Below, in pieces: positions 32,212-60,300 of a stretch of DNA of 64,000 nucleotides. The position numbers were made by a program, and so were the translations under genes. The stretch's first letter is position 1; every line of letters starts with the position of its first letter. Origin of the DNA: Welwitschia mirabilis (lineage: Eukaryota); the NCBI GenBank assembly GCA_051453625.1, contig JBOZIK010000001.1:19123681-19187680 (forward strand), written 5' to 3'. Under the pieces are notes generated by a model. That model searched no databases. It was not told the origin of the DNA and saw only the letters and a program-made list of their open reading frames with translations.

Positions 32212-34599
32212 TCTTGGTGCCATTACTAGGGAAGGCTACTGAGAAGCATGAGGTTTCATTGCTCAGGTAAGTACATTGAATTTTAGTTTGAATATTTCTC
32301 TATAGTGACATCGCATTTCTATTTAGGAATTGTAGGTTTTCAATTCACAGTTTTCTATTTTTCGTAGTTTTTTAATAAGAGTCTATCGTCCTCTCTGTTA
32401 TCCCTATGACATTGAAAACAATAAACAGAGTATTGCTATTTATTTTCTATCTACAAAATTTTCTTTTAGTTTTTGTTTTAACAATAAAATAATTATCATC
32501 TTCTTTATCGTCCCCATGAAAGGCGGATGACAGCCTTTATTCTATTTTTCTACATTCTATTTTTATGTTATAGTTTTAGTTCAGCTTTCTGCTTTCTATT
32601 TTCATCATCCCCTCTATCGTCCCAATGACCAGAACGATGACTACTAGTTGTTTTTTATTTCATTTTCTATTACTTTCTATTTGAAGAATGTTATGACATG
32701 GTCAATCTGGGAAATAAATATCAAAGAGAAAGACTATGGATGGAAAAAAAATCAGAGAAGGACTAGTCAACTTCAAAATCAAATAGGGAATGCAGTCTCT
32801 AAGTGCATATAATATTCCTTCTGAGTTTTTTTTTTCTGAATCTGATTCCATAGAATAAAATTTTTTAGAAAGTACTTTAGAAGAAGATAATTTTATGAGG
32901 TCAACTACTGTGCAAAAACAAAACCAAGCCTTAGGTTCTTTAATGTCTGGTCCTAATGCAAACTTTACCCTTAAAGAATTAATTTCCAATATGAAATGGG
33001 AAATTCAAGTTCCTTTTGATTTATCCCCAGGAGATGATGCTGAATTAAAGAATTTATATTCCTGTCCCATCTTTAGTGGTGAACATAATGAGGATTCCCT
33101 TTAACACATTGCAGACATTGAATAGTTAGTCCTTACCTTTGGCAATGAGAAAAAAGGATTAGTGATCATACCTATATGGTTATTTTTCTTATTATGTTAA
33201 AAGAAAAGATAAAATTTTGATTGAAAACTATACCCACAAGAGCCTAAAAACTTGGAACCAAGGTCACGAAGTTTTTATTAAAAGATTTATAAGTGAGGCA
33301 ATGATTAGGAAAAGAAAAAAGAAGTGAAAAATTTCCAACAACAACCAAATGAGAATTATGCTTCCACATACGAACACTTAATCACCATTCGCTCTAATCC
33401 AATAGACACTTTTACATAAGAAGAGCTAGTTGATTGCTTTTATAGTGGGCTAAACCGCTAAATGAAATAACTCGAAGATTTCTCTTGTGGTGGAAACCTA
33501 ATGAACCTCATACTACAAAATGTATGGAAAACATTAGAAGAACTTGTGGAGGTGAGCTAAATTTGGTCAACATCAAAAGATAAGTGCACTGTAGGATAAA
33601 TCATCAAAGATTTGAAAAAGGTAAAAAAATAAAAGGAGGTAGACAAAATAAAAGATAACCCTATAAATTTGATTAAAGAATTCACAACAACTTTAGAGAG
33701 ATACACTGAGATGATTCTTAATGCAAAATTAGAAACTGAAAAAGAGTATTATGCCAATATGTGACTTATGCAAGGATAACTATCACATAACTAAGGATTA
33801 TCCACTATTGTCAACATACAAGGAGAAAATACATAAAGAACTTTATGCTTTCAATAAAAAATTTTCAAACTTCATAAATCAAAACTAGTCACAACCTAGG
33901 ATGAATACACAAATCTTTGATAACAAATTTAAAAATTTCCAAACTAATTTTTAATCTTTCAAAAATTGATTTAAAAATTCGAACTTTCAACCAAGTTCAT
34001 TAAATTTTCAACATCAAGATAATTCACTTTAAAAACCTATAGATAAACTTATGAAATTACAAGAAAGAATAAACTCTAGCATTGAAAAGACAAACACCAA
34101 CATTGAAAACTGAGTAAATGTCCTTCAACAAACCATGTTGGTAAACCAAAAACCACAAGAATCATTAGCAACACAACCTATACCAAACCCTAATGAAATG
34201 AGAAAAGATTATAAGGTTGTAACAAGAAGTGGACATGAAGCAAACCCTTCTCCTTCTGAAGCGTCAACCTCCCAAAACAACATTAGGGATGAGGAGGAAG
34301 AAGAGGACATTGAAATACTGAAAAACTACAACTTTCCTTTTCTTTGTAAAAGTAAAAAGAAAAAATCTTTACAACAAACAAAAAAGAAAATCGCTACCCT
34401 TTAGCTTTATAGGATTAACACTAATTCAACTTTCAATGAACATCTCAAAACCTTAATGCAAAATGTGAGTATAAACTTATCATTCTAGAAACTTTTTCAA
34501 GAAAATCCAAAATACTCTAAGATATGGAAAGACTTAATAAGAAGAAAGCAAAAACAAGTTATTTCTAGCAAAGTCTTTCTAGCTCAATCACTTACAACT

Positions 34600-37500
34600 T
34601 AGTATTATAAAAATCTCCAAAATTTAAGGATCTAGAGGTAGCAACAATGAGTGTTACATGAGATGAAGACAAAAGAATCAAAATAGCTTTAATTAACATT
34701 AGAGTGAGTGTTAACATCATACAATTACACATTTGTAAGAGACTCGATTTACAAGATAGAATAAAACCTAGTCAGATTCTCTTAGAATTAGTAAACACAT
34801 TGATTAAGAAACCGTTAGGGGTTATCAAATATTTAGTGATCCAAATTAAAAAAGTATTATACCCGATAAATGTGGTTATCATAGAAGTCAAACATAATAG
34901 AGGTTATCCATTGCTTCTAAGAAGATCCTTCTATGCAAAAGCCCATTACATCGTTAATACAAGAACTAGGATGATGGAATGTCACCTAGAAAATGAAAAG
35001 TTTTCAATTAGATTTTTTGATTCAGTTAAGAAAACTTAGGTGATGAATGGAACATAAAAAATAGAATCAAACCAATGTTATTTCTTCAACATCATTTCCT
35101 TTAAGAAAGATGGCTAATGTTACATGAATCTATGCTTTATGATGATCCACTTGAGATTAAAAATCTAGAAGTTTTTAATACATCCAACCTTAAGCATCTA
35201 GAAAATGACCTTTTAGATCAGGATGAAGAAGAAACAAAATCCTTAGTCTGTAAGGAAATCCAACTATTAACAACAAATGAAAACTCATACTTTGAGAAAG
35301 ATCATCTACTACATGAGTCAGAAACTGAATATCTTAATCTTAATTTGAAAAATCTTCCTAGTGAACTAAAATATATTTTTCTCTGTAATGATTAAAAAAA
35401 ACCTCTCATAATCAATGGTAATATTTTCTCTGAATAAGAGTCAACATTAATCTCCCTTTTGACTTCCAAAATTCATGCCTTTACTTGGTCTCATAAAGAT
35501 TTATCTGCCATTCCTCCTTTTATTGTTCAGCATAAAATCTATCCTAAGGAAAATGTGAAACCTATTAGGTAACCATAAAGAAGATTAAATCTAGCATTTA
35601 AACAAGTACTTAAGAATGAAATCATTAAGTTAATGGATGTTAGAATCATTTATGCTATATCAGATAGTGAATGGTTTAGTCCCTTAATTGTAGTACCAAA
35701 GAAGGATGGGAAATGGAGAGTATGCATAGATTTTAAAAAACTAAACAAAGTGTCAAAGAAAGATCATTTTCCCCTACTCTTTATTGACTAGATACTTGAT
35801 AGAATTTATGTACATGCTTTCTATTGCTTTTTAAATGGATATAGTAGTTATAATCAAGTTTTCATAGCTAGTGAACACTAGGCTAAAATAACTTTTACTT
35901 TACCTTTTAGGACATTTGCTTTTAGATGAATGCCTTTTGGATTATGTAACACTTCTAGAACTTTTTAAAGAGCTATGATGGGTATTTTTTCAGACATGTT
36001 AGAGGACTTGATAGAAATCTTTATGGATGACTTTTGAATCTTTGGAGAAACCTTTGATCAAATCTTCAAAAGTTTAAAAAAAGTCCTTAATATATGTATG
36101 GAGTGTGGTGTTCATTTAAGTTGGGAAAAGAGTTTTTTTTCTAGTTGAAATTGGAATTGTTCTAGGCCACAATATTTCTAAAAAAGAAATTAAGATGGAC
36201 CCTGAGAATGTTGGTATTATTCAATACTTAACTTCTCTAACCAATGTTAAGAAACTTTGATCTTTTCTTGGAAATTGTGGTTTTTACTACTGCTTCATAT
36301 AAGATTATGCTAAAATATATAAACCCCTACACTCATTACTAGAAAATAAGCTAAATTTGATTGAAATACATCTTGTCAGCTTACTTTCAATAAACTCAAA
36401 CATAAACTCTCTTATGCTCCTGTTGTAATAGGACCTGATTGGGAAAAATATTTTTAGTTAATATGTGATGCTAGTAATTTTGCTGTACGTGAGGTGCTTG
36501 AATAAAAATACAAAAATGATTTAAAGTTATTTCTTACCATAGTAAAACATTGTACAATTCTCAAGTAAATTACTTAACTATCAAGAGAGAAATATTATCC
36601 ATAATCTTTTGCCTCAATAATTTTAGACATTTTTTAGGCTTCCACACAAATGTCTACATAGATCATGTGGTGATTAAATACCTAATGACTAAGAAATATT
36701 ATAGCACTAGGTTGATTAGATGGATCNNNNNNNNNNNNNNNNNNNNNNNNNNNNNNNNNNNNNNNNNNNNNNNNNNNNNNNNNNNNNNNNNNNNNNNNNN
36801 NNNNNNNNNNNNNNNNNNNNNNNNNNATGAAGAGTCTGCATAGATTTTAAAAAACTAAATGAAGTCACAAAAAAGGATCATTGGTAGAATTTAAAAACAT
36901 GCTTTTTATTGCTTTTTAGATGAATGTATCAGTTATAACTAGGTTTGCATAGCTAGTGAAAACTAGGCTAAGAAAACTTTTACTTCACCTTTTGGAACAT
37001 TTTCTTTTAGAGAAATTTCTTTTAGATTATGTAACTTTTCTAGAATATTTCAACATGCTATGATGGGCATTTTTTTAGACATGATAGAGATTCAATATAA
37101 ATTTTTATTGATTACTTTTTAGTCTTTTGAGAAACCTTTGATCAAATCTTAAAAAGATTAAAAAATTCCTTGATAGATGCATAGAATATGGCCTTTATTT
37201 AAGTTGGGAAAAGAGCTTATTTTTAGTTGAAAATCGAAAAGTCCTAGGTCATCACATTTCTAAAAGAGAAATTAAAATGGAATCTAAAAAGTTTAGTATC
37301 ATTCAAAACTTAACTCTTCCAACCAATGTTAAGTAACTCTAATCTTTTCTTGAACATTGTGATTTTTATCATTTCTCCATATAAGATTATGCTAAAATCT
37401 ATAAACCCCTACACTCATTACTAGAAAAAGAAGTTAAATTTGATTGGAACAAGTCTTATTAGCTTTCTTTTAATAAACTTAAACATAAACTCTCTTATAC

Positions 37501-39200
37501 TCCTATTACAATAGAACCCGATTGGAAAGAAGATTTTGAATTAATATGTGATGCTAGTACTTTTGTTGTAGGTGGGGTGCTTGGATAAAAATATGAAAAT
37601 GATTTCAAATTTATATCTAATCATAGTAAAATAGTATTCAAAGCTCAAGCAAGTTATACAACTATGAAGAGGGAGATGTTAGCCATAATCTTTTGTCTTA
37701 AAAATCTTAGACATTATCTTTTAGGCTTTTACATAAACATCTATATAGACCATGTGGTGATTAAATACCTGATGACTAAGAAAGACTCTAGTACTAGGCG
37801 GATTAAATATATCCTCTTAATGCAAGAATTTAATTTCACCATCATAGATAAGGCAAAAAAACATAACAATATAGCAAATTAGTTATTACACCTTACTTCT
37901 GCTTTTGATGATATTTCTATTAGTGATTCTTTTCCAAATGAATAACTATTTATTGTATCTTATACTCATCCTCCTCCATAGTACATGGATATTGTTAACT
38001 ATCTTGTTACTTTAAAAACATCATAAAATTGGAGTCACAATTAAAGAAAATCTTTTCTCCATAGGATAGGTGACTACGAGTGGATCTCACCTCATCTTTA
38101 TCATTGGTGTAAGGATCAAACTAGAATGAGAAAAACCTAATATCCTTCACCCTTATCATGGTGGCATTTGTAGTGGACATTTTAGTAGTCAAAAAATAGT
38201 CATGAAAGTTATTCACTCCGGATTCTATTGGCCTAGTCTTTTTAGGACTCTTTTGAGTATGCTAGAAAGTCTAATGCATGTAAATATTTTAATATCCTTT
38301 TATGATCATAGGATATGTCCCTCAAACCTAGTCTTTAGTGTGAACCTTTTGATTATTAGGGAATCAATTTCATAGGCCTAATTAAACCACCTTCTAAAAA
38401 CAAAAATTACATCTTAGTGGTTATGGATTATGTGATTAAATGGATTAAAGTAGTTCCTACTTACTCAAATGATGTCTGAACCATTTGTAACTTTGTTAGA
38501 ACTCAAATTTTTTAATGTTTTGGATTTTTTTAAAATAATTATTAGCCATTAGGGAACTCATTTCATTAATTATCTTTTTAGAAAACTTCTTTTATTCATT
38601 GGTATAGAACATAGAGTAGCTTGTGCTTACCACCCTTAAACCAATGGATAAACTGAAAATGCTAATAAAGAAGTCAAAAAAATGCTTATAAGACTTATAT
38701 CTACTAATAAGAAGTCATGGAATTTTAAGCTAAATGATGTTCTTTGGGCTTACCATACAACTTGGCATAATTTACTTGGTTTCTCACCCTATGAACTTGT
38801 ATACGACAAAATCTATGTTTTCCTTATTGATGTTTGTTATAATTCTTATCGTTCTATACCTCAACTTAATCTTGTTAATTTAGAAGAGAATTTTACAACT
38901 TGTTTAGCTCAATTATATCATTGAGATGAAAAACAAACTCAAGATATGCATCGTTAACTTATTCACAAAGTCCAAAATAAGTTTAAAGATGATAAAAAGC
39001 TAGTCCATAAGAACTTTGAACTTGGTCAACTAGTCTTGTTGTACAACACTAGAATGTAACTCATACATAACAAGTTAACCTCAAAATTATTAAGTGCTTA
39101 CCTTATTAAGAAAATACATTCTAATGGCTCAGTTAAGATTTCTGACTTAACCACTAAAGAAATTTAGAAAGTTAATGGACAAAGGTTGAAAATATGCGAG
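34600..39200 (+). pseudogene. Degenerate Gypsy pol (protease, RT, RNase H, integrase), with RT-RH repeated across an N gap
   Basis: Motifs include PLIVVPKKDGKWRVCIDFKKLN, KDHFPL, FMDDF, ICDASNFAV, GGICSGHF, YHP*TNG*TE and KVNGQRLK. Confidence 0.92.
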
Positions 39201-42200
39201 CAACCTTCTGATATAAACATGATAGAAGCACTAGCCTTAGAGGTTTCCCTCGATGAGGAGAGCTTCTTTCCTATCATTTTCTAAATCTTATCTTAGCTTT
39301 TTCCTTTAAAGATCATTATGACATTACTTGATTATCTTTCAAAAATGACTTATGTATTTATTTTACTTCTATGACGAGTCTTTGACTTGGGCATTTTATA
39401 GTGATAAGATTGGATTCACCCAATCTTAAGACATTCACACATCTATGAACTTTGTTTTGAAGGAAGATTTTTTATTTCTAATGTTTTTCTTAATAATGAA
39501 AATGTCTTAGACTGTTTATGGATGTTCTTTTCTATCTTTTATCTTATTACTTCGCCTTTATCTTTTGGAATGTTTAATCATGTGAAATTTATTTAAAAAA
39601 AAGGTATGAAATAAGATCATGATGTCCTACTGCAAGTACACCAAGGTAAATTTTTCATAGAGAGGCCTTTGAAGTATGATATAAGAGCTGTGGGAACTTC
39701 ACTGGGAGGTCAATTGGCCATGATTCATGGGTCCTTACTTCTTTGACTATGGTTGCACTCCCCTCATCATGGATAATAAAATAATAAAAACTTTAAGGCT
39801 ACGAGATCAGTGGCATTCCCAGTGTCATCATAGCATTGCTTGTTTCCTAGAATCTTAGTTTTTCTACATGATCATTTCATTTCTAAGGATTTAGGTGTTT
39901 GTTTTGAGATGTAAGTAGGTGAGTTCATTTTTGAGAAACTCTTTGATCTTATCACTTATTATTTAAAGTATTTGATTTTTAGCATCATCATAACCACTAC
40001 CTTATCAAAGAGAATTTTACATAATTATACATCTGTCATGCTTTTTTAAATCAATTGATGTTATGATTTCTTTCATAGAAGTCTACTAGATTAAAATGTA
40101 GAGTAGGTAGGCTATCTTCTTTGTGTTGTCTTATGTTCATTCTTTTTGTTTTCTTTCATTATTCAGTTAGTTGTATCAAAATCATTTCCATATTTTCTTA
40201 TCATTTTAGGACCTTAACACCTAATGGTTTCCTTATTTAATTTTCAATAAAGAGCTGATTTCTTGCTTAGATGAGTTTTATTATAAATTTTATAATTTTA
40301 TTTTTAGTCTTTTAGAGTTCTAAACACTATTTTTATCATTTTTGTGAAGGCACATTTGTTGGGCACTTATGGATCTGCTTCATCCTAATTAGTACATTTT
40401 CATTATCTACTCTTCCCATGCTTGTCAAAATATTTCCTACATCTATATTTTTCAAATATGACATTTCTACACCTAGCTTTGCAATCAATTTCTCAAATGT
40501 TAACATTTAAAAACACCCATTGTCTACCTCCTCATTTGGATCTACTAATCTGATTTCTTTAGCTAGTTTGGGATGTATTGTTTTTCTCGGGGGATGGTCG
40601 GACTCATTTTCAAGATTTATTTTTCATAATTTTTACATCAGAGCTTTCATAAGACATAATTTTTAAAATTTTCACTTCATACACATGATGCATTACATGT
40701 TATTTTGTTATGTGATACGTTTGAGATTATTTAAGAGCCTGTTTTATAATTTCCAGAATGACTTTTTTAGAGATAATTTGACTCATAATTGTAGTTATGT
40801 ATCTGGTTTTTATCAAGGACTGACAAAGGCTAAGTGGAGGGCTATGATGTGCTACTAAATTGTATGCATTTGATGGGATGTCATGAGCTTTTCTGTAGTG
40901 CATTTATACAGGTTTAGATGAAATTCTGAGGATTATGAAGATTTGATGGATGATCATTGAAAACCATAATTCTTGGCATAATTAAAGGTATTTCAGGCAC
41001 ATTCTGTAGAATCATGAAGGTCAATATGACTTCTGAAAAATTTAAACAATTATTACTACCCAATAAATAAACTCAAAAATTAGAACCAAAATAATGCATA
41101 AGACAGGATTTATAGTTGTTTGGGATAGATCCTACTCTACTCTTGGAAGATAGTCAATAATCAAGACTATTCTGGATCTCTATTGCTTCACTATCCACCA
41201 TGTTTTTAAGGCTAACCTTCAACCTTACAAAGCAAACTTTTTTAGCTTAGATCTCAACCTTCATAGACTAGACTTTTATAGGATAAGTCTTAACCATAAT
41301 AAAATGGACTTTTACAGGCTAAGTTTCAACCTCAATAAAATACACAAGGATGAGTGAGAAAATGAAGCCTCTATGCTCTAAGTCACTCAAATGCAAGAAC
41401 TAACAATGGAGCCTTATTACTTAGCTTTAGTACAAAGGTAAGCGCTGAGTGAGAGAATAAAGATGTTATAAAGATAAGTTCTTTAAATTAAGAGTGTAAT
41501 CTTCTTTTTCAAAATTTGTTTGATTTACTTGACGAGGCTTTTGAGTGTTATTTCTTTAAATAGATTTCTTCAAAATATAGCCATTTAGAAAGTTAGAAGG
41601 GAATATGATATTTACAATGGATAGATTTGGAGAAATAGTGGTTAGAAAACTATTTCAAAATTTCTGCTTCTGCTCTGACTAGTCAACTGCTTGAAACATC
41701 TGGTTGTCTCGAGTGACTCACATTACCTAATTGGGTAATCCCCTTTCACATCTAGTCAACTCGAGTAATTCACTTTACTTAGTCCGGTGACCCCCATCTA
41801 AAATCTAGTTGACCACTTCTGTTTAGGTCTGGTCAACTTCACATGAGTCTGGTCGATCCCATATGAAATAGTACATATTAAAAAGCTTAAAAAGTGCATT
41901 CCTAGATTTGGTCAGCCCTATAAAGATCTAGTTGACCTCATATCAAGTAGCCTAAAATGTATATTTCCAGGTTTGGTCAACTCCTACTTTAAGTCATTGG
42001 ATAGAAAATCAAGTTACTTTAATCAGAACATGTCTACATCTTGGTTATCTTTTGGTTATGGATCTTTTCACTTCTTGCATCTATGAACTCACATTTTATT
42101 CTATAAAGATCATATTAATTTACATTAATTGGCAATATAAAGTTCTAACAATTTCCCCCTTTGATATTAATGGCAAACAAATAAGTGATTTCAAGACTAA

Positions 42201-42899
42201 ACAAATATCTCATTTTTAAGCTCTTTCTTTCATCAATCTAATAAAGAATATTGATATAATAAAAGCTCCCCCTTTCATAATTCCATACAAAGAATATTAA
42301 GTAAAGGATGCCTTTTCTTTTAATATATATATATTTCTGAAAAAACATTTTGATAATACCATATTTTCTTCCCCTTTTGACATCAATGAAAAAGGATAGA
42401 GAAAGAGAGATAAATAGCTATAAACATTAAACATGGGATAAGGAATATCATATTTTATCCCCCTAACTTTATGCCATATATATGTTAAAAAAATAATAAT
42501 CATGATAGAGTTTCCAAAGCAAGTATGTAAATGAGATGATAATTTTTAATTCATTATTAAAAAAATACCAATTGATGTTATGCTTATGATAATAAGATTT
42601 AATTACAAAGTAAAACTTCAAAATATTCAAAACTTATAGATGAATCTTCATAAAAAATTACCATTAAGAAGCAAATCTAATACAATGATAATGACTAGAG
42701 TATATATAACCTGCTTTAGCTAATAACCTTAGTGATCACATAGTAATGAGGTTCTCATACAAAAATAAGGTAAATATCATAATAATGCTTCCAAGGAGCA
42801 CAGCATATTACAATAGTTAACAATTTAGAAAACATAATGTAATAAATAAAAATTAATCAAAATAACAAGAATTAGTACTAATGTTTAAATTTTTTTGGA

Positions 42900-44435
42900 T
42901 CAAAAAGACTCTAAATTCTTAGCTTTATCCATATGGTCTTTCTTGACTTTTGGGTAGAAACTTGTTTAGGGAAAAATTTAAATGATAAAGCATCAGTGTT
43001 TGCAAAACACGTATTTTTTCTATATGGACAGTTAAATTCTAAATGTCCAAGTTTACAATAATAATGACAAGTGATATTTTTGGTAGAACATGTCATACAT
43101 TTAATACTTAACTTACTAGATGAAGTTGATGTACTATTACCTTCAAATCAATATCCTTTTTTTCATGTGCAAGTTGTTCCAATCCAAGAATCTTCTCAAG
43201 TTTCTTTAATCATTCTATGAATCTACTCAAGACTTGTGAATATTGAATTAATTTCCTTATGAGACTTATATTTTCTTTTTGAATCTCTTTATATCTTTGA
43301 TTTAAGACTTCATGCTCCCTTTTTAAATTATTAATGATATTATTTAGTTGATTGACTTTTACAACAACTCTTTTACATTCTTGATATAGTTCATGACATG
43401 TGTCTTCAACATTCTCCTCTTCTTCATCTTCACTCATATCCAAATCATCATGCTTATTGAGTTTTGATGACTAAGTAGTGGGATTCACAAGTGCCATGAA
43501 AGATAATGTTTAATGTTCTTTAGATTCTTTATTTCAGCTTTTTTCTTCTTATTCTTCTTCTTCAAAGTTATTCCAAGTGGCTACTAGTGAGGTCTTCTTT
43601 AGGTCCTTTAGTTTCCTATTATTGATATCATTATTTTTCATATGCCTAAAACTCTTGTTGAATTTTCTATCTCTTCTTTTTAATAAAAATGCTTTAAANN
43701 NNNNNNNNNNNNNNNNNNNNNNNNNNNNNNNNNNNNNNNNNNNNNNNNNNNNNNNNNNNNNNNNNNNNNNNNNNNNNTCTTCTTTCTATTAAAAAATTTT
43801 AACTCATAAGTTTGAAGGTTACCTTGTAGTTCATCTAGTGGCATCTTGCTAAGATCTTTACTTTCTTTGATTGCAGTCATCTTGGGTTCAGCTCTCTTGG
43901 GAAGGGTTCTTAAGATCTTCCTTACTATCTTAGCTTTCTCCATCTTTTCTCCAAGGCTTACCATGGAGTTTACAATGTTCATTAGAATTTTTTAAGAGTA
44001 TCTTCATCATCCATCTTAATATCTTCAAATTTTGTAATCAACATCTGCATCTTTACTTACTTAACATTAGATGTTCCTTCATGATCAATAGCAAGAATAT
44101 CCCATACTTCTTTGGTGGTCTCGTAGTTTACTATTCTCTTAAACTCATCTATAGCCATAGAACAAAAAATTGAATTCAAAACACAAGTATTAATAGTTGC
44201 ATTAGCTTTATCTAATTTATTGCATTTATCTTTTGGTTTCAACACTACTATAAAATTGCCATTGGCATCCTTTTAAGTTGTGTCATGGTGGCTATAACTT
44301 GTGATTAATAGATCCTCATAATCTATATCAAGAGATCTTAAGAATATTCGTATTCTAGCCTTCTAATATCCATAGTCTATTTCATCAAAGAGTGGAGGCC
44401 TAAAAATAGATAAAGCTTATGTAATAAAATCCATG
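42900..44435 (-). pseudogene. Sirevirus-like gag remnant (no pol)
   Basis: Minus strand reads RPPLFDEIDYGY*KARIRIFLRS, TTKEVWDILAIDHEGTSNVK, KIVRKILRTLPKRAEPKMTAIKESKDLSKMPLDELQGNLQTYE, a coiled coil, and CHYYCKLGHLEFNC. Confidence 0.9.
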
Positions 44436-45780
44436 GCTAGGGTTATTGAATCAAAGATTGATTAAAATCTTAGTATTAACTTAAACTAGACCTTTAATAC
44501 CAAATGTAGGATCCTAAACCCTAAAGGAGGAGGAGCAGGCAGGGTCGAGGGAAAGGTTGGGGTGGGAAATGAATAAGACTTCTAAAAAAATTTAAACAAT
44601 TATTACTACCCAATAGAGAAATTATGACATAATAACATATAAAAAAATAAACTCAAAAAGTAGAACCAAAATAATACATAAGATAGGATTTATAGTGGTT
44701 CAGGATAAACCCTACTCCACTCTCAGAAGATAGTCAATAATGAAGACTATTCCAAATCTCTATTTCTTCACTATCCACCAGGTTTTTAAGGATAATCAAC
44801 CTTAGAAAGCAGACTTTTTCAAGCTAAGTCTCAACCTTTATAAACTAGACTTTTAAAGGCTAACTTTTAACCTTAATAAAACATACTTTGTAGGCTAAGT
44901 ATCAACCTCAATAAAATGAATAAGGATGAGTGAGGGAATGAAGCCTCTATGCTCTAAGTCACTCAAATGCAAGAACTAACAATGCAGATTTATTGCTAAG
45001 ATTTAGTACAAAGGTAAGTGTTGAGTAAAAGAAGATAGATGTTATAAAGATAAGCTCTTCAAATCAAGAGTGTACTCTTCTTTTTCAAAATCCATTCGAT
45101 TTTCTTGTTGAGGTTTTTGAGTGTTACCTCTTTAAATAGATTTCTTCAAAATATAGCTGTTTAGATAGTTAGAAGGAAATCTAACATTTGCAACAGATAG
45201 ATTTGGTGAAATAATAGTNNNNNNNNNNNNNNNNNNNNNNNNNNNNNNNNNNNNNNNNNNNNNNNNNNNNNNNNNNNNNNNNNNNNNNNNNNNNNNNNNN
45301 NNNNNNNNNNNNNNNNNNNNNNNNNNNNNNNNNNNNNNNNNNNNNNNNNNNNNNNNNNNNNNNNNNNNNNNNNNNAGGTTAACCACTTGTGTTTTGGTCT
45401 AGTCGACTCCACATTACTCAGGTCGACCCCATATGAAATAGTACATATTAAGAAGCTTGAAAAGTGCATTTCTAGGTCTGGTCGATCCCATATGAAGTAG
45501 CCTAAAATGTGTATTTCCAAGTTCGGTTGACTCCTACTTTAAGTTCTTGAACAGAAAATCAAGTTACTTTAATCATAACGTGTCCAAATCTTAACTATCT
45601 TTTGGTTATGGATCCTTCAGCTTCTTGCATCTGTGAAATTACATTTCATTCTACAAAGATCATATTAGTTTGACATCAATNNNNNNNNNNNNNNNNNNNN
45701 NNNNNNNNNNNNNNNNNNNNNNNNNNNNNNNNNNNNNNNNNNNNNNNNNNNNNNNNNNNNNNNNNNNNNNNNNNNNNNNN

Positions 45781-45906
45781 AGCGAGTCTAGCGAGTCTGT
45801 GAACGTCAGACTCATCTCTGCGAGTTCGACATCGCAAACTCGCGGTGAGCTGCGAACTCGCGAACTTGCAAGACTAGCTGGACTCGCCATGAGTCTGGTA
45901 ACAGTT
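45781..45906. mobile_element. CpG-rich terminus of a probable hAT/MITE DNA transposon
   Basis: Repeated gcgagt/actcgc motifs end in 'gagtctggtaacagt' (TIR-like). CpGs are retained, unlike the flanks. The left side is lost in a gap. Confidence 0.5.
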
Positions 45907-48257
45907 CCTTATACAACTATGTTGCCCTCATAATTAGTCATATTGTATGGGTTCTTTTGTACAAAAAGGTAAAAGGGAGAGATTTGATAAGTCTAAATAA
46001 ATGTTAGTCCATTATGATTGTCTTTATTAGGGTATTTTCTACATAGATTTAATACGTTATGAACCTATATGTGTCTTTTACTTAATATATATTAATTAAG
46101 TGTGTCAAATATTATTGATCACTACCAATTCCTTACTCTAGCCATATTGAGTTAAGCTACTAAGTATATCATAATATAGCTATGATAATTAACTACACTT
46201 ACATATCAAATTTAATTGAATCTTTGGCTAAGTATAATTGTCTTAGTTCTAGTATAACTGTGCACATACTTATAAGTCTTAGCTAAATATTCCAATTTTA
46301 CTAATAAGCAAAATGTTTTAAGGAATGTTAAATTAAACTTGGGTATAACTAAGCTAACTATTGGAACTATATCTATGATATTATATAATAATCTCTTGTT
46401 GTCACATTGGACGTTTAAAATTGGACATTACAAAAGGTAATATATAAGAAAATAAATTAAATAAATATATTAAAAAATATGATACAAAATAAACTTTAAT
46501 AAGTTTAATATATGCAGTTTCATTAAGAGAAATATATATATAAAGAAGAATTTAGTGACAAGTATTATAATAAAAATTACAATGGCTTATAGACATACCC
46601 TATGCATATGATAATGTACTTGGACACATAACATTTTAAGAAGAAAGAGGTAGCTTTCGAATTTATTTTCATACTCTGGGATCATCATATTATTATATTA
46701 CATTATAGCTGCACAAACTATAGGATACAAAAGCATCCATTTTCTTTGAATGCATTTTTGTTCATCTAAAGTTATTCGCAAGTGTGCAAGGCCCTGAGAA
46801 TGGAAATTCACATGCACATCATATTATACATTCATAAAGTCATTTTCATTCTCATTCTTTATCATTTCATTTATCTTTTGTCCTTTTCTTATTCCACCCT
46901 TAGGATTGTTATTTTCAAATGGTCTTTTACCTTTTTTTCCTTGTATTTTTAACTCTTTATTTATTGGATGTTAATGAGAATAAAGGTCATTGAATTTTTA
47001 AATCTTTTGATGCTTTAAAGATAGAGCCTTGAGAAGATAAGATTTAATGTAGTGTAGGCCTTTGTGATGCTTGAAGGGGCAATCTCTAAGGGAGGTAAAT
47101 TTTGGTATGTTTCTTAGCTTCGTAATGGTGTGATGATCAAACTGTCATAATCAAGCTGTAAGAAAAATTATGTTTATCTAAAAATGGTTATTAAGCTCTA
47201 AGCTTTAAGATAGATGTTTTGAAAATATGATGGATGTTTTCATTAACAAAATGATAAGGATTAACTAAAGGCTCTTTATGGAAGGAGATGGTAATGCTTT
47301 CAAACATTATCATCTCTGGAGTAATGAATTTGCTAACTTTGTTTACATTTTTGCTTGTCTTTATAGTTCTTAAGGTTTATACGTTCAATGATAGAGTTCA
47401 TTTTTTTTTAAATGGTACATCATAGAAACCAGAAATAACCCTAGACATGGATCTTCTGTGAGATCAATTTTGAATTTTATCAATTTAGACTTTAAGATTT
47501 ATCTGTGATTCCTCAATTAGATGTATGACATGCTTAGGATGCCCAAAGCTGAGTTCATTCAACATGTAGTCTTTGACTCCATGATGTACTTTTAGATCTA
47601 CCAACTAGGTTCAAAGATCTTTCTTCCATTAGCATTACTTACATGGTTCATCCTTGTTTTAGTGAATGTATTAAGGGGCATATTATTAGAAGTAAAGGTA
47701 GTCTGTTTTATAGTAATATTGATAAACTTTCCATATTAAATAGTCAGATGGACTTTCTTAGAAGTTGGTAGATTAATAAATGCCTTAAGTATGAAAAGAA
47801 GGGCTTTTCCAGATCTAGGTAGGTGGTTTTAAATGCTATAAGTTTCATTGCTATATAACTTTAACTAGACTCTTAATGACATAGCAAAGAAATTAATAGG
47901 GAGGTTAAGCCATAGTTGTTGAAGATATGCAGTAGTAATAAATTGTTAAAGATGGAAACACAAGCATTTTTGAAGGAGAAGAGTTAATGGAACAAGGGAG
48001 AATACTCAAAAACCAAAATAGAATCACATTTCTTGGATTTACAGTTCATCTCTTGATTTCCTTGAATTTTATTGAAGTAAAGCAATAGTGTTTATAAAAG
48101 TAAAGAGGAAAATTTCACTGCTTTGCTTTAGCTATGGTCAAAGAAATAGCTCCTAGGTCTTGTCATTATGATTGGATCTTCTTTGCGAATTAAATTTGAC
48201 CAAGCAAAAATTTATGTTATAGGTATGTTAGTAGCCTCTACTTTTAAGCGAATGATA

Positions 48258-48826
48258 ATGACAACTCAGGAAATGATCAAGCGTAAGGCCCCTACAATGT
48301 ACCCACAATGAGGACGAGTGACATCACCATGAAAGTATCAATAATCATCTTGAAATATTAAGGAGTCTTATTACTAATACAACTAAGTCAAATAAGGCTT
48401 TACTTTTAGTAGAAGTGATAGAACATGTAAAGAGGCTTAAGCACTTAGTGGAGAACATGGGATAGAAAAGCCAAGTCTTGAGTGAAGTAGATGAAGTGAG
48501 CATGGATCCTCTAGATGAGGAAGGATGGCTTCCCATAAGAGATTTTCTCTGCTGTGAAGATTGTCTAAACCTTCTCATAGATCTGGTCAAGATCTAAAAA
48601 AGCTACACCTGCACACTATAAAAGTAATGATGGCAACCTTAAGTATAAGGATCAAAAAATGTTTTTTTGACTATCAATTATTTTGATTTAGTATAGGACC
48701 TTAACACTAACAACCAACCTCTTTCCAATGTAATGGACATGAAAGAGTCTAGATTTAGCATGGGCCCTTCTGTTTTCTAGTATCTAGGAGGCCCTCAAGG
48801 TGGTGTTAGAGAAGCATAATCTCAAT
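48258..48826 (+). pseudogene. Processed (intronless) pseudogene of a bHLH30/bHLH32 (TMO5-like, subgroup Vb) transcription factor
   Basis: MTTQEMIKRKA / HNEDE*HHHESINNHLEILRSLITNTTKSNKALLLVEVIEHVKRLK...SEVDEVSM...FLCCEDCLNLLIDLVK../LHLHTIKVMMATL / SSI*EALKVVLEK. Matches MTAQEIMDAKA..HSEAERRRRERINxHL..LRS..PNTTKTDKASLLAEVIxHVKELK...CCEDR.DLL...SIQEALKAVMEK. Confidence 0.88.
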
Positions 48827-51558
48827 GAAAAATTTAGTAAATAATACTTTTGATAGCAATACCAGCAAAAGTCCATGGCAAGTGAGTGTTATAAGTTTTC
48901 AAGTTTTAAAGATGTTAAACTCAAACTGCCTATAGATTAGTATGACAAGACTTACCAAATTAGTATTTAACCATGTTAAGAGGATAAATTTTATACGATA
49001 AATTGATGGAGATGAATAATGTTGAATTATACCTTTTATTGTTTTTAGATTAAGCATCTTCCCCTTCAAATAGGTTAATTCCATCATTTTCTCATATTTT
49101 CCCTCTTTAAGTTAGAAATGTTATTTTTAATAGTAGCTTGTATTAGTTTCTTATAATGTATAAGTGTCATATCTTTGTGAAAGTAGAGAGCTAAGTTATT
49201 TATAAATACTTGATTTGTGCTTTGATAGTTGTTAGTAATAATTTTAAAGCCTTAAAGTCTCTAGACATGCATTACCTTCAAATGTCTAGGTTACATCCTA
49301 AGTAATTACTATAGGATCTAAAACCCTAAGGGAATTGGAGGGGAAGGGGGATGTGTGCATAGGATTTATTTAAAAAAAAATTAAACAACTATTACTACCT
49401 AGAGATAAATTATGACATTAAAAAAATAACAAAACAAACTAAAAAGTAGAACCAAAGAAATGCACAAGATAGGATTTACAGTGGTTTAGGATACACCCTA
49501 CTTCACTCTCGAATGATGGTTAACAACTGATACTATTCCTGATCTTTGTTGCTTCACTGTTCACTATGTTTTTAAGGCTAACCGTCAACCTTACAAAGAA
49601 AATCTTTTCAGGCTAAGTCTCAACCTTCATAAATAGGACTTTTGTAGGCTAAGTCTCAACCTCAATAAAATGCACAAGGTGAGTGAGGGAATGGTGCCTC
49701 TATGCTCTAAGTCACTTAAATGTAAGAACTAACAATGGAGTCTTATTGCTTAGATTTAGTACAAAGGTAAGTATTAAGTGAGAGAAGAATGATGTTCCAA
49801 AGATAAGCTCTTCAGATCAAGAGTGCAGACTTCTTTTTTAAAATCTATTTGATCTACTTATTGTGGTTTTTGAGTGTCATCTCTTTAAATAGATTTCTTT
49901 AAAATCTAACCATTAGATAGTTGGAAAGGAATATAAAATTTGCAATGGATAGATTTGATGAAATCATGATTAGAAAACTATTTGAAAATTTCTACTTCTA
50001 CTCTGATCAGTTGACTCCTCAAAACATCCAGTTAACCTAAGTGACTCATATCACTTTATTCAGTTAACCCCTTTTTCATATAGTTAACCCGAGTAAATCA
50101 TATTACTTAATCTAGTTAAACCCATCTAAAATCTAGTCGACAGTTTTTATTTAGGTCTGATTGACCCCATAGGAGTTAGGTCAACTTCATATGAAATAGT
50201 GCATATGAAGAATCTTGAAAAGTGCATTTCTACATCTGGTCAACCCCATATAAATCCGATCGACCCCATATGAAGTAGCCCAAAATGTGTATTTTTAGGT
50301 TTGGTCAACCCTTACTTTAGGTCCTTAGATAGAAAATCAAATTACTTTAGTCAAAACATGTCCAAACCTTAACTATCTTTTGGTTATGGATCTTTCAGCT
50401 TCTTGCATCTGTGAAATTACATTTCATTCTACAAAGATCATATTAGTTTGACATCAATTGGTAATATAAAATCCTAATACATTATGATGCTTAGTGCTTT
50501 AGATGAAGATCAATAATGTTAGAGGCTAGCTTCTCTTGGGTTAAAAGGACAAAGAAGACTATCGCCCCCTTTGTCATCCTCATGATAAGCAAGATGACAA
50601 CATTGTATAACTCACATAGGAATGCTGATGTAACTGGAGCTAGTACTACTAAAGTCATCTTTTCTAAAGGGGTGTCATCCCCATGGTCATCCCCATGATA
50701 AGATGATGAACATAATGTATGAACCATCATCTCCTTAGTTATTCCCATGAAAGTTAGGACAACACCTGAAATAGTCAGCCGACTTTCACCTATTTTATCT
50801 ATTTCTTTCTTGGATTTGAGTGCATTTCTTAGCGCACTTTGTATGATGGTTTCACCTTCTTCACCCTATAAATAAACCCCTCTTTGACTCTCCTATCCAT
50901 CTTCATTTGCACTAGACATTCTCGTGACAGGGATAAAAGGGCGGAAGATCCATCTTGTGGGTTGTAAAAAGACATTTCCTTAGTGTTGGATTGTGCATCC
51001 TCCATTGAGGTGCAGTTGTTTTGTAACCTAGATGCTAGTTCGATTCTTAATATAAACTCTGCTTTCTTTTATGCATTTATACTATTAATTTTCCTTATGG
51101 CTCATGTTGTTCTTGATTTGGTGATAGTTTCATTGATGATATAGGTCTTAAAGGCAACCTTTATTAAATTTGATGATAGTAGTTTAGAATCATATTTTTC
51201 ATTACATTTATTTAACTCACTTGATAGCCTAAGTCAGTCTCAGTTAGTGACAGTCTCCCTGGCTGATCTAGGTTATATAAGGCCAATCTTCTTGACACAT
51301 TAATTTGGTACTTAGATAGGTGTTTATTTAGGTTAAGTGCATTTGCATTTTGTTGCATGTTTACTTTCTTGCATTGTTCTTAAGTCAGGACATAAAATTT
51401 TCTCTAAAAATCAATTCTCCTTATTCTCTCAGACATATTCGATGAGTTTATGATATTTAGATCACTCCTAGAGTGTCATGTTTTGTAATATATCTATTTT
51501 GATTAATAGGATTCAGTAAGATGTAAAGGATTGCAAAAATATGCACCACAATAGTGCT

Positions 51559-54332: not shown

Positions 54333-57300
54333 TGTTCACTTTAATATAATGACTTAGATTTAAACTAAGTTAATACTTAGTATCATTCTCTCTAAAGGGA
54401 TAATCTGGGTTGTCTTAGAGAAAGTATACAACTCTTTCTTAACTTACAAGTTACAATAAAAGAAAGGAAAAATAGAGAGAGCTGGGAAAGTGTTTTGAAA
54501 CTTCATTGGAAAGATAGGAAAGCAAGAAAGCTCTAAGGTCTAACCCAACTTGTCCTCTAGTAGTTCTTCACTCTAATGATACCCTACTATTTTCTTGAAA
54601 CACACTTCAAACTATGAAGTAATAATGGCTCAGATCATGGTGACATAATTTCATTCATCACATAAAGATTGTTGAACTCAATAGCCACTTGATCCTTCAC
54701 AGCCTTAAAATGATAATAGATAATAAGGACCTAAGGTATTCAAAATACATTAACTTAAAGAAGGATTAGACTAAATGATTATAGGATTTACTCAAATGGC
54801 AATAGAACTTAATACTAAAATTACTGCTTAAGCATTAAAAGTACAAAGTGATTTGCAACTTAAAATCAAACTAAGACAAATATTGTGTATTAAATCAATA
54901 AAGGCACATTATATCAAAGGAAGAAGGAATCTAGAAAGGACTTCTCAAGCTATTGTTGAAGCAAGTTTACTCCCCAATGAAAGAATTTAGAAGGCCATGT
55001 CGACTCGGCACTCCAAAGGTTCTATTATTTTGGCAAAACAAAGGATGTTACAAATGAGGGCTTAACACCATCTTATAGGCAGGCATGAGGTGAGGGGTGG
55101 TAACAAGTTTTTGTCTTATAGTGTTAGATGAGTGGTTACAAACTATAGCATGTAGCGTTTTATCATCTTGCATTAGGTAGGAATCATCATGATGAGCTCA
55201 ATACTTAACTTCTAAACACTATTGCTTCCATTAATCAATAATGTTGTTATGTGTCTCATTCTACTTAGCATTGTTACATGTCACTGCTACATGTCATTGT
55301 CATCATTGCCATGTATCGTTAAAAATGTTAGTTATTTTTTATGTAAAATTCAATTAATCCCATAATTTCATTCAACTAAATTTTGTATGAAAAGTTAAGA
55401 ATGTAAGTTTTGAAGTGCTTTAATCAGAAGGACTAATGGTGTTAATGACCTAGACAGTGGTGCTAGCACTTTAAACTAAATGATGTTCATATTTTGTAAT
55501 GTTCCTATGAATAAGATAATTATCCTCAAAATGTCATGAAAAGTAATAAGTCCATGATTATTATAGAAAAGCAATAGAAGATATGTTTTCATAACAAATA
55601 GATTATATTAGTATCTTTTATTAAAATAAATTGGTTAATTAACTTAATCAGGATGTTAGTTTTTACATGTTAACACATCCCCTAACTAGACTTTTTCTAG
55701 AATCTTAGCAAAAAGTTGATAATGAAATGATCAACATGGGAAAAATTGTATAAGGTAAAATACTTAACTGTAAAAAATAATATATCTTTGAAAAATTTAT
55801 AACCAATTTTATAAAATTAAGGTATTAAAATTTAAAAATTTTGTGAAAAATTAAATGTCATCCCCCCCAACCAAAATTGAACTCTGGTTTCAAAGTTTTT
55901 ATAATAGAAAGTTTTAATGCTTTTGAAAACATAGCCTTAGAAAGATTTCAACAATTCATTTTATTAAAAGAAAAAGATGTAAAGTGATTCAACTAAGCTA
56001 TCAAAAGGTAGAACTACCAAATGCGAGACAAACTGCTAATCAAAAAGTTAATCTATATACCTTATGATGTTATCTCTCATGAAATCAGGATAAAGTGGAA
56101 TGGGTGATCGAGACAGAGAATGAAAACATGATAAGGTATTAACCATGCAACTGATGGTAAGAGGAGATAATATACCTAATTCAATGATCTTTATTATATT
56201 TTTATTATTTTTAATGAATCTCGATATCAAATAAACATAGAATTGATCAACAAGAAATCATAGCAAATCTTAAGTATGAAAGCTAAAGATAACAGAACTT
56301 AGAAGGCTTCCAATTTCCACCTTTTTTCCCCTTTATTTTCCTTTTCTACTAACATATATGTTCTTAGTTTTAAGCCTTTGAATCACATTGAGCATCCAGT
56401 GTTATAACATTTTCTTGCAATAAAGTTAAGCATGTTATTTTATGAATAAATTAGTGTTGCATTGCCAGTAAGAATTTATAGCCTTAATGCAGTTGATTAT
56501 GTTATAATTAGATTGTTAGGGCTACATTGTCAGTGAACATCCATAGCTTCAATATAGTTAACTAAACCAAATTAAGTGATAATGAGATATACATTAGAGA
56601 AGAGATGATATTTTTTCTTTTTTTATTTCTTCTCATATTCATTTTTCATGCACATAAGAGGGGTTATTGGCTCATTAGCCTAATCAAGAAAAATCTTATC
56701 CCCATTAAAATATTAAAAAATAATGAACAAAATATGTTGGTATATCCCATTTTTCTTATCCATGTTTTACTAAAATCAAAGACTTCAATAGAACCTAACT
56801 TTAATAATTAGACTTAAGAGAAGGGTGACTTTTCCTTAAAAACCCATAAGTGTACTTAATCATAATCATTACTTAAGTGATAACAAGATCACTTATTATT
56901 GATTTTTGTTAAACACCATTAACTTGGATCTATAAGTCTCATAAATTCATAAGTTAATGGAAGGCATAGATGGTAATGTTTAAGGTGATGTCCATTAACT
57001 TTGAATTGTTGGTGATTTTGAGTGCTTTTGATAAAACCATTTGACAAAACCTTTTGTTATTAGAAATAGATCTTTCCACTTAGAAACTAGTTTTCCTAGG
57101 AATAAATGTAATCATAAGGTATATAGCAAAATTAGTTCTTCTTCTTGCAACTCTTTCCTAAGGATGTTTTCATCTAACTCATTAAGTTATATGACCCTTT
57201 TTTTTCTTGCTACCTCCAGACCCAAGTTCATGTTTTTAATCACCTAATATGCTTTATGTTCAAGTTCGATAGGTAAACAACAAGATTTTTCATAGAATAA

Positions 57301-60300
57301 CCTAAATGAGAAAATTTCTAAAGGTGTCTTATAAGCTATTTAATAGGTTCATAGAATGTCATTAAGCTTAAAAGATCAATCTTTTCTAATTGAGTTNNNN
57401 NNNNNNNNNNNNNNNNNNNNNNNNNNNNNNNNNNNNNNNNNNNNNNNNNNNNNNNNNNNNNNNGAGGGTAATCAAATCATGTTAAGATTTTTTTCCTTAA
57501 ATAATTTCACCACTATTTAAGCATCATTAGATTAATACTTTCGTACCTAGTAACAATGTTGTTAAATATTCTAGTGCAAAAGTGCATTTTACTATTGCTA
57601 ATCAAAACTCGAGGGTAATCAAATCATGTTAAGATTTTTTTCCTTAAATAATTTCACCACTATTTAAGCATCATTAGATTAATACTTTCGTACCTAGTAA
57701 CAATGTTGTTAAATATTCTAGTGCAAAAGTGCATTTTACTATTGCTAATCAAAACTCGAGGGTAATCAAATCATGTTAAGATTTTTTTCCTTAAATAATT
57801 TCACCACTATTTAAGCATCATTAGATTAATACTTGCATTCTTCTACACATTTAGTAATGTAATCAATGTAAATAAGAATATATTGATGTCTTTTTAGGAA
57901 GGATATAGGCCTTGAACGTTAATTACCCAAATATCAAAGGATTTAGTGACAAGGATGGGGTTTATAGGCATCATATGCTTTTATGAAAGACTGTAAATAA
58001 TATTAAAGGATCCAATGATGAGGATGGGGTTTAGACTCATCATATGCTTTTATGAAAGCATATTGAGCTTTTCATAATTTTTGCAAGTTTTGCAATAGAG
58101 GTAGGAGCTCTTAAACATGGATGGCCAATAAAAAATGGATTGGAGAATTTTCATGGTGGTTTTGTTAGTAAAATAATGGCCATCACAAGCCTTAGAATGG
58201 CAATGCTTAAGAATGTCATGAATTTCAAATTGAGAGATACATTTAAAACTTACTTATTTTGGCAATACTTAAACAAATAAGGACTATTCCAAAAGAATTA
58301 TTTAGCTGACTTAAGAATTGTTTTCTATTGTTAAAGATCCAGTGAGAGTAAATAACCTTGTACACTAAGTAGTTTGCAATATTAATAAACAAAGGTATTT
58401 TCTAAACTAAAAAAATGTATTCATCAAAAAAGGCATGATCCATGGAAAGGAATGTTTGCATGTTTTCTTGAGTTATTCATGAAAGGTGGCCTACAATTAT
58501 GTTATCAAAACCCTTTTGATTCTTGATTTCTAAATCAAATTTATACAAAAGGAGGATCCATCTAATTAATTTAGGCTTTAAATCCTTTTTAGCAAATAGT
58601 TATCTAAGGACTAAGTGGTGTGTGTAGATAATTACCTTAGAGCCTAACAAATATTGCCTAAATTTTTATAAGATAAAGACTATGGTGAGGAGCCCCTTTT
58701 TTATGTTAATGTAGTTCAATTAAGTTTTAGTTAGCATTTTACTGGTATAATAGATTATAGTTAGTTTTCTATTTATTCTTTGTCCTAAAGCAGCTTCAAT
58801 CTCATAAGTTCTAGTGTCTCATATAAGTTTAAAGGATAACTTCCAATCAAGCAGTCAAATAATAGGTGTAGAGGTAAGTTTTCCTTAAGTTCATCAAAAG
58901 CATGTTAACAATCAATGGTTCAATTAATAGAGGTATCTTTGCTTAGGAGGTTACATAATGATTTAGAGATTTTGCTAAAGTTTTTCATGAACCTCCTATA
59001 ATATTTTATATGAATCTTTCTACTTTTGTAGAGTGGGAAGGTGAATGATTAGATAAAATTTTATTGGATGTACTTGAATTTCTTCTAAAGAGATAATGTG
59101 TTCTAATACTATGCCTTTTTTAACCATGAAATAGCATTTTTTCCCACTCAAGAACAAGGTATTTTTCTATACATTGCATAAGAACAAGCTCTAAGTTGTG
59201 AAGGCAATGGTTGAAAGAGGACCTATGGATAGAGAAATCATCCATAAGTATTTTAATGCATCAATCTAATAAATCAACTAAAATTCTAATTAGGTAATGT
59301 TGAAATGTGGCTAGCGCATTGTATAACCCAAAAGGCATTCTTTTATAAGCAAAGCTTTTATATGGACAAGTGAAAGTTGCTTTATATTACTCCTCAGTGG
59401 CAATTTCTATTTGGTTGTACCCTGAATACCCATCTAAAAAGTAATAAAAAGAATTTCCCATGAGTTGTTCTAAGATTTAACTAAAAAATAAGAGAGTGAA
59501 ATGATCATTTCTTGATATAACATTTAGTTTTCCATAATATATGCACATTCTCTCTTTAACTGCAGGTTTAGTGGGGAGAGGTTTATTATGTTCATTTGGG
59601 ACTAGGATAATTCTAGATTTATTTGCTACTGTTTGGGTTGGACTTACCCATTTACTATCTCAGATGGTTTAGATGATTCCATTGTCATAATAATTTGATT
59701 ACTTCATTCTTCTTCTTTCAAGGTTGATTCTATTCTTCTTTGGGATTCTATGGATGACTTAGCATTTTCTTATAAGTAAATGTGATGCATGCAAATGTTA
59801 GGGTCAATTCACCTGATGCCAAAGAAGATCCATCCTATTTCTTCCCTATGTTTTATTAAGATGTTTAGCAATCCAGTTTCTTGAGATGTTGATAAAAAAG
59901 AATTTATCACTATCGAGAAGGTGGGATTTTCTTCTAAGAAATCATACTTGCGATTTTTTAGAAGAGGCTTAAGTTCAATGGGGGTTTTATCCTAAAAGTA
60001 TGATTACTCTAAAGAATTATTTGTATGAAGGTATGTGGAGGATTCTTGATCATCTAGAAGGCTTTCTATCCTATCCACATTTTCTACTCCATCATCATTA
60101 GAATGTAATTTCATGACATTACAAACATTTAATTCTATCATCATATTGCTGAAGGATATTTTCATTAAACCATTTCTATAATTAATCAAGGCCTTTGAGG
60201 TTACTAGCAAAGGCCTTTCTAAGATGATGAGTACTAACTTATTTATTGTGTTTTACATGTCCAAAAGTACAAAATCCACTAAAAATTAATAGCTACCTAC

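Follow-up and report, generated by a model that had tools for sequence, protein, structure and literature searches.

A 64,000-nt stretch of the Welwitschia mirabilis genome (GenBank assembly GCA_051453625.1, contig JBOZIK010000001.1, positions 19,123,681 to 19,187,680 of the forward strand; hereafter the window, in whose coordinates all positions are given) holds at 41005-50479 a composite insertion, old and dead, from a Copia family that is abundant and putatively gag-only. This insertion carries one ~1.15-kb long terminal repeat (LTR) in three direct copies, LTR-A, LTR-B and LTR-C, and interrupts an LTR of another retrotransposon, the host. Its foreign DNA, as far as it can be read, is a chimeric pseudogene in which the 5' part of an OSCA/CSC1 mRNA is joined to the 3' part of a bHLH (basic helix-loop-helix) mRNA. 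The retrotransposon parts of the locus, including the target-site duplication (TSD), the polypurine tract (PPT) and a candidate primer-binding site (PBS), are as follows.

30965-32209, plus strand: sister (5') LTR of the host, uninterrupted; the empty site, with CATTC once at 31123-31127
40841-41004, plus strand: host 3' LTR, left part, its last five bases being the TSD copy CATTC (41000-41004)
41005-42150, minus strand: LTR-A, plus strand reading TGTAG...CTAACA; 3' LTR of a complete gag-only element
42151-42163, minus strand: PPT, CAAAGGGGGAAAT on the minus strand, also read as AAAGGGGGAAAT; abuts LTR-A
42164-44490, minus strand: internal region, degenerate gag only, with a 79-N gap at 43699-43777
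44491-44502, minus strand: PBS-like sequence TGGTATTAAAGG, two bases from LTR-B
44505-45680, minus strand: LTR-B, middle one of the three and 5' LTR of the complete element; plus-strand start TGTAG
49310-50479, minus strand: LTR-C, plus strand reading TATAG...CTAATA; extra upstream LTR with both termini complete
50480-51551, plus strand: right part of the host 3' LTR, opening with the TSD copy CATTA (50480-50484)

Layout of the insertion and its host

Repeat search and three-way alignment bear out the arrangement given in a preliminary description of this DNA, namely three LTR copies of one family in the order A-gag-B-foreign-C, and the 100-N gap noted there is present. Read on the minus strand, the sense of the element, the unit runs from LTR-C through ~3.6 kb of low-copy DNA to LTR-B, PBS, gag, PPT and LTR-A, the LTR start reading TGTTAG. 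Direct LTRs of the TG...CA type are present, and the termini of LTR-C differ from those of LTR-A and LTR-B by transitions. N gaps occur at 43699-43777 (79 N), 45219-45375 (157 N) and 45681-45780 (100 N); the second splits LTR-B at a place where ~156 LTR-A columns are aligned, and the third has taken its final ~21 nt. LTR-B is consequently spread over two small contigs (43778-45218 and 45376-45680), and its apparent position between the gag region and the foreign DNA relies on the scaffold joins. The inner end of LTR-C is intact and directly adjoins DNA foreign to the family. Local alignment beside LTR-C gave no PBS remnant: the score of 18 compares with a mean of 17.6 for shuffled sequences, 223 of 500 of which did as well, and a candidate picked out by eye was dropped on this ground.

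LTR-B, PBS, gag, PPT and LTR-A together form a complete but dead element of the TR-GAG kind, ~4.7 kb long (41005 to about 45700). Its PBS-like sequence presumably resembles the initiator tRNA-Met primer site. A Pfam search of the three minus-strand frames of 42152-44508 returned no family at E<=0.1, be it protease, integrase or reverse transcriptase (RT), other than Retrotran_gag_2 (PF14223, ~43803-44179, E 2.7e-8 and 1.7e-7), in agreement with the earlier statement that only gag lies between LTR-A and LTR-B. Gag-like open reading frame (ORF) pieces run from 44272 down to 42911, with a CCHC knuckle in the ORF at 42911-43147, and ~750 nt of non-coding DNA separate gag from the PPT. The pieces flanking the 79-N gap follow one another in the expected order and strand; two protein relatives, which their source names TNT 1-94-like, are so distant that their alignments do not extend across this gap. 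Stops are numerous in gag, whose pieces are spread over three frames, and the copy is therefore dead.

The empty site is proven by the sister host LTR, which runs uninterrupted through it (...ACATTC/TAATGC..., the slash marking the point of insertion) and aligns with the two parts of the interrupted LTR at 84% (30965-31127 vs 40841-41004) and 83% identity (31123-32209 vs 50480-51551). The occupied site reads ...CATTC/TGTAG on the left and ...CTAATA/CATTA/TGATGC on the right. The 5-bp TSD, with one mismatch, thus encloses all of 41005-50479 and not the B-A element alone; the sister-LTR alignment thereby confirms that the unit lies between CATTC and CATTA and that the host LTR resumes exactly after it. 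Plus frames of the DNA between the host LTRs (32210-40840) encode RVT_1 and RT_RNaseH domains, which makes the host a plus-strand element of Ty3/Gypsy type; the Copia unit is thus inserted antisense into its 3' LTR. The names Sirevirus-like for the unit and Athila for the host, used in the preliminary description, were not confirmed. The Sirevirus (Maximus/SIRE) lineage is told by RT/integrase phylogeny, an env-like ORF and conserved motifs in and near the LTRs, and the Copia copy, lacking pol and env, offers for comparison its LTR start TGTTAG; Athila is told by lineage-specific RT/integrase and an env-like ORF, and the host showed RVT_1 and RT_RNaseH. In the host, the sequence for RT/RNase H is itself duplicated (36135-36528 vs 37217-37611, 83%) on either side of a 100-N gap (36727-36826), with RT_RNaseH matches in two frames; either the element has a true internal duplication or two copies were joined in the assembly.

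The foreign segment and its gene copies

The foreign segment (45781-49309), between LTR-C and LTR-B, consists of the following parts.

45781-45905, no strand: CpG-rich piece bordering the 100-N gap and forming an imperfect hairpin
45906-47287, no strand: AT-rich stretch of ~1.4 kb, without Pfam, Rfam or tRNA match
47288-47768, plus strand: OSCA/CSC1-type pseudogene fragment, codons 1-156 of protein P0022, with 2 stops and 2 frame changes (tblastn)
47769-48120, no strand: spacer of 352 nt between the gene copies, without assignment
48121-48896, plus strand: bHLH pseudogene fragment, codons 98-357 of the 359 of protein P0001, with many stops and two frame changes (tblastn)
48897-49309, no strand: stretch of 413 nt from the bHLH copy to the LTR-C terminus, without poly(A) run and without PBS

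Read-through frames of the segment gave two Pfam matches in one plus-strand frame, RSN1_TM (E 3.4e-6), the N-terminal domain of OSCA/CSC1-type channels, and HLH (E 1.7e-3), the latter falling short of the Pfam cutoff. An exhaustive HMMER search with that frame returned 140 matches, the best of which is the 359-aa bHLH protein P0001 (E 3.7e-40), and OSCA-type proteins are among the best matches, including the 768-aa P0022 with its full RSN1_TM, PHM7_cyt, RSN1_7TM architecture (Pfam). A word-indexed protein search with the bHLH piece found nothing, whereas HMMER did find relatives; the copy presumably belongs near the TMO5/bHLH30 group. The bHLH pseudogene reported earlier is hence borne out, on the plus strand, by Pfam, HMMER and tblastn, and the OSCA/CSC1 fragment is a second gene piece that had been missed. 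Rfam and tRNA scans of the foreign segment gave one sub-threshold chance match and no tRNA.

Both gene copies are partial, come from two unrelated parent genes and share one orientation, and no poly(A) run is visible in the sequence at either of them. Away from the U5 end of LTR-C, one meets in turn the bHLH 3' side, bHLH codon 98, OSCA codon 156 and OSCA codon 1. A single unbroken cDNA would have this order and polarity, and relative to LTR-C the polarity is that of first-strand cDNA. The 413-nt stretch next to LTR-C may represent the bHLH 3' untranslated region (UTR), and the AT-rich stretch may include the OSCA 5' UTR.

Evidence on an RNA origin comes from intron positions. Exons were mapped in 46 plant OSCA loci, genomic or transcript, taken from metagenome contigs, with attention to the junction at codon 105/106. 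At this junction (up to codon 110) 26 of the 46 are split by 37-1847 nt, four end there, five cross it in one alignment with 81-201 extra nt, and one does not cover it. The remaining ten cross with <=6 extra nt; three of these reach codon 200-260 and are transcript-like, and seven stop at codon 120-125. The copy in the window crosses codon 105/106 in one alignment (codons 38-124) with 6 extra nt. The conserved first OSCA intron is therefore absent from the copy, which most likely derives from spliced RNA, unless the parent gene of the species itself lacks that intron. A second conserved intron lies in codon 154, where the frame leaves the protein as ...GSN AG/GTATGC in 8/8 genomic loci inspected, and the OSCA homology in the window ends at codon 156, within ~7 nt of this junction; the 352-nt spacer might be a retained intron or the point of a template switch. 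P0006, the nearest OSCA-type protein, departs from its relatives after residue ~152, at this conserved second intron site, and rejoins them later, which looks like a gene model reading into an intron. By tblastn, neither gene copy contains an intron-sized insert. The bHLH copy is a putative retrocopy, a reading suggested by its colinearity with the protein over 260 codons; a limited literature search turned up no intron positions for the bHLH group.

Independent contigs from four sequencing runs (two samples and two studies; three runs of organism A and one of organism B), compared at >=93% likeness, separate the foreign segment from its surroundings. The LTRs, the gag region, the non-coding tail and the host flanks show a summed contig depth of ~10^3 to 2x10^4, so that both transposable element families are very abundant. 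Gag and the non-coding tail lie within 10^3-10^4, and short contigs cannot tell whether the other copies are also gag-only; uncovered parts and LTR-internal 'joints' reflect other family copies and are uninformative on this locus. At 46758-48743 the depth is 0.4-7, rising to 10-95 at the edges of the foreign segment, which accordingly appears to be low-depth and single-copy, although the 93% cut would miss an old, diverged second copy. Two contigs, one of 2122 nt (46857-48977, 17 differences) and one of 1876 nt, span both gene copies contiguously, organism B contigs match at 0-1% difference, and a 117-nt organism B contig equals 49282-49398 exactly, across the junction of foreign DNA and LTR-C. 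On the other side, four low-depth contigs of 295-297 nt align to 45781-45972 and extend 103-105 nt leftwards into the 100-N gap, so that real low-copy sequence continues there.

Comparison of 45781-49309 with the rest of the window yielded only an 87-nt AT-rich stretch at 70%, so the LTR fragment announced in the preliminary description was not confirmed, and no second copy was found in the window. Window comparison and Pfam likewise revealed no similarity to the gag core or to other family sequence, and no trace of a second core. The description of a gag-only Copia moving a transcription-factor sequence was overstated: with a depth that is single-copy-like, nothing about the 3.5-kb segment shows renewed mobilisation.

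The edge of the segment next to the 100-N gap stands apart. The window as a whole has a CpG observed/expected ratio (O/E) of 0.19 (284 observed; 1-64000), about five-fold depleted at 30% GC, the LTRs, gag and gene copies have ratios of 0.0-0.25, and the differences between LTRs are mostly transitions; depletion and transitions together fit long-term cytosine methylation and deamination. The piece at 45781-45905, with 12 CpG in 125 nt (O/E 1.30), is the sole undecayed one in the region. It forms a long hairpin with imperfect pairing (dG -31.8 kcal/mol, z -3.7), has neither another copy nor an inverted partner within the window, and may be where a younger insertion begins that the gap conceals; the hairpin could itself account for the 100 Ns. 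An earlier reading of this piece as a hAT-like end, which would have a terminal inverted repeat and an 8-bp TSD, found no confirmation, since what lies here is the CpG-rich hairpin and any terminus would fall in the gap. Helitron, CACTA and MULE readings were set aside for want of a fitting terminal motif in a check by eye.

Divergence of the LTRs and known precedents

Kimura two-parameter (K2P) distances are 0.185±0.016 for LTR-A vs LTR-B (938 sites), 0.197±0.017 for LTR-B vs LTR-C (929 sites) and 0.256±0.019 for LTR-A vs LTR-C (1108 sites), the last still being 0.241 on the 900 columns with bases in all three LTRs. The two host LTRs, a pair necessarily older than any insertion into it, differ by 0.191±0.015 (1185 sites). 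The A-B divergence does not exceed that of the host pair, whereas that of A-C does, both over all sites (Fisher p 0.0037) and in transversions (64/1108 vs 32/1185, p 2.4e-4). That the outer pair should be the most diverged, and above the older host pair, argues against one ordinary cycle of reverse transcription, and the outer LTRs were probably not identical at birth, judging by these substitution counts. LTR-B differs from A and C at ~16-17% of ~930 sites, and private changes number 78 in LTR-A, 51 in LTR-B and 88 in LTR-C (chi-square p 0.006).

As a whole, the unit is a combination of already known phenomena, a TSD-bounded three-LTR complex and chimeric retrocopies made by a retrotransposon. 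In chimeric processed pseudogenes of the long interspersed element (LINE) type, two RNAs are fused in one orientation, the first giving its 5' part and the second its 3' part, and the present fusion likewise has the order expected of RT template switching; unlike them, it shows no poly(A) tract or flanking duplication at the ends of the copies. Four published systems offer further comparisons. Three-LTR complex insertions with a flanking TSD have been ascribed to abnormal template switching (PMC1950507), and like these the unit is of Copia type, with an internal third LTR, direct orientation and a 5-bp TSD pointing to a single integration. That set asks for two complete cores and highly similar outer LTRs, whereas in this unit DNA foreign to the family takes the place of the upstream core, and A-C is the most diverged pair. 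The 'abnormal' complex LTR retrotransposons of rice, attributed to cDNA recombination before integration (10.1101/452573), share with the unit both the flanking TSD and outermost LTRs that are not the most similar pair; according to the abstract, their model joins two normal elements of one family, with no mention of foreign cDNA replacing a core. Non-autonomous TR-GAG elements have LTRs, PBS, PPT, a 5-bp TSD and a single gag-only coding region, and were collected with a 4-kb filter (PMC4350172). The B-A element agrees in its LTRs, PBS, PPT and sole gag, the unit as a whole in its 5-bp TSD, and the abundant family may consist of at least two gag-only copies, but at ~4.7 kb with 1.15-kb LTRs it exceeds the 4-kb limit, and its gag is broken.

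LTR-mediated retroposition has been described for Drosophila and vertebrate retrocopies, maize Bs1 and yeast Ty, with partial mRNA copies from several parents and no poly(A), and its published template-switch model has RT move from element RNA to an mRNA and back (PMC5131818). The gene copies resemble such products in being partial, in stemming from more than one parent gene, in lacking poly(A) and a TSD of their own, and in lying between LTR-retrotransposon sequences, where they replace the interior of an element. The absence of parental introns, also typical of LTR-mediated retrocopies, holds here for OSCA intron 1 only. As distinct from those cases, the copies are antisense, and they lie between a PBS-less extra LTR and a complete element rather than within element ORFs.

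Possible origins of the unit, and other repeats in the window

A composite built from reverse-transcription products before a single integration is the origin that we tentatively favour, at rather less than an even chance, because the traits of the unit match those of LTR-mediated retroposition (orientation excepted) and of TSD-bounded three-LTR complexes. An LTR-bearing cDNA, a cellular cDNA and the cDNA of a complete element would have been joined by template switching or end-joining, the contributing cDNAs possibly stemming from two different family members. Integrase would then have inserted the composite once, giving the single 5-bp TSD, and the whole unit would afterwards have decayed by methylation-type transitions. 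One particular version, which we regard as quite unlikely, starts from LTR-length plus-strand DNA that ends at U5 without a PBS copy and would prime on packaged cellular RNAs. RT would copy the bHLH mRNA from its 3' UTR to codon 98, jump to an OSCA transcript, reach its 5' end and land on the cDNA of a complete element, and the three-LTR product would integrate in one step. If true, this would differ from the published model of minus-strand template switching and be a way in which antisense retrocopies of several genes arise upstream of an intact element.

A number of observations weigh against assembly before integration in either version or leave it less than complete. Both gene copies are on plus frames and gag is on minus frames, so that the copies are antisense to the Copia element, and the model of PMC5131818 would predict sense-oriented ones. 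The RNA origin of the bHLH part is putative; within the foreign DNA, a total of 1.4 kb and also the CpG-rich piece lack an assignment, and the latter looks younger than all around it. LTR-B has the shortest private branch, which no model explains cleanly. It is, moreover, identical to LTR-C over the 65 nt adjoining the 100-N gap; in the last 110 columns before the gap B and C differ at 5 positions, A and B at 19, and A and C at 19, and the G at 45635 that LTR-B and LTR-C have in common is found in ~2% of the family contig depth. This likeness near the gap could be an assembly artefact or gene conversion. The junction of LTR-B with the foreign DNA is hidden in the 100-N gap, the LTR-B contigs are flanked by gaps, and the four runs supplied no contig that bridges any of the three N gaps or spans the whole stretch. 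Finally, the same map is obtainable by recombination after integration.

Such a rearrangement, which we hold to be possible if somewhat unlikely, would begin with the integration of an ordinary element or an unequal-crossover tandem (LTR-core-LTR-core-LTR) whose upstream core was later replaced. The replacement could have come about by ectopic conversion or double recombination with a locus holding an older chimeric retrocopy between two family members, by nested insertion and deletion, or through filler DNA at a double-strand break. The outer ends and the TSD would be retained, and partners for recombination are plentiful in so abundant a family; A-C divergence beyond that of the host pair is what LTRs of different origin could show, the identical 65 nt of B and C resemble a conversion tract, and an LTR end exactly abutting foreign DNA is how a 3' LTR would look at another locus. 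Two crossovers, or several independent events, would nevertheless be required, the deletion of PBS and gag would have stopped by coincidence exactly at the LTR-C terminus, and it would be by chance that an RNA-derived chimera lies <=~410 nt from an LTR end in cDNA polarity; nor has a second core left a trace in 45781-49309. Simple unequal crossing-over within one element is rejected, as the upstream end of the middle LTR of such a tandem should be A-like and that of LTR-B is C-like. Ectopic recombination between two family members, as raised in the preliminary description, is accordingly a live rival.

Scaffolding or gap-filling error, also raised there, stays alive for its part because no independent contig bridges the gaps, and we consider it unlikely. 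The LTR-B contigs would come from other family copies or be chimeric local assemblies, and the true locus would be a two-LTR element C...A with its 5' half replaced by foreign DNA, or some larger thing within the gaps. Apart from the three N gaps that surround these contigs, this reading can point to the base that the window has at 44117, which occurs in essentially none of the family contig depth, and to those at 44919 and 45635, which occur in 2-7% by run; the 65-nt identity with LTR-C sits right at a contig end, and a short private branch is expected of a consensus-like collapsed contig. It has to contend with the distance of LTR-B from both A and C, which marks it as a distinct copy, with a 157-N gap that equals the missing LTR length, with the order and strand of the gag pieces on either side of the 79-N gap, and with a PBS and PPT correctly placed for a B-A element.

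Read-through transduction, in which an upstream-LTR transcript would run through flanking DNA and the downstream element and be retrotransposed as a unit, accounts for one TSD enclosing a unit that starts and ends with LTRs but is highly improbable, since on paper the duplicated leader would yield LTR*-X-LTR-core-LTR*-X-LTR, with four LTRs and identical outer hybrids, where the map has only one X and outer LTRs that are the most diverged pair, and since the OSCA part is spliced, hence not plain flanking gene DNA, and the two gene copies run opposite to the element; the earlier idea that flanking host DNA was transduced therefore fits poorly.

If the map is right, the locus is a natural plant example joining three-LTR complexes and chimeric retrocopies in an orientation not expected from the usual model, and it could inform the study of gene-fragment shuffling by reverse-transcription by-products where genomes are very large and rich in repeats. 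Its practical importance is small, since it is one ancient and decayed locus, apparently not amplified further and interrupted by assembly gaps.

Further repeats occur elsewhere in the window. About 1.6 kb is repeated at 79-89% with a 2-kb spacing (5336-6982 vs 7294-8982), the copies lying on either side of a 100-N gap (6984-7083). A pair of direct repeats spaced 8.8 kb apart (54591-55167 vs 63426-63996), 76-82% identical and reaching the window end, is probably the LTR pair of a further old element. At 57464-57904, right after a 67-N gap, lie three tandem 147-nt units, the first two of which are 100% identical.

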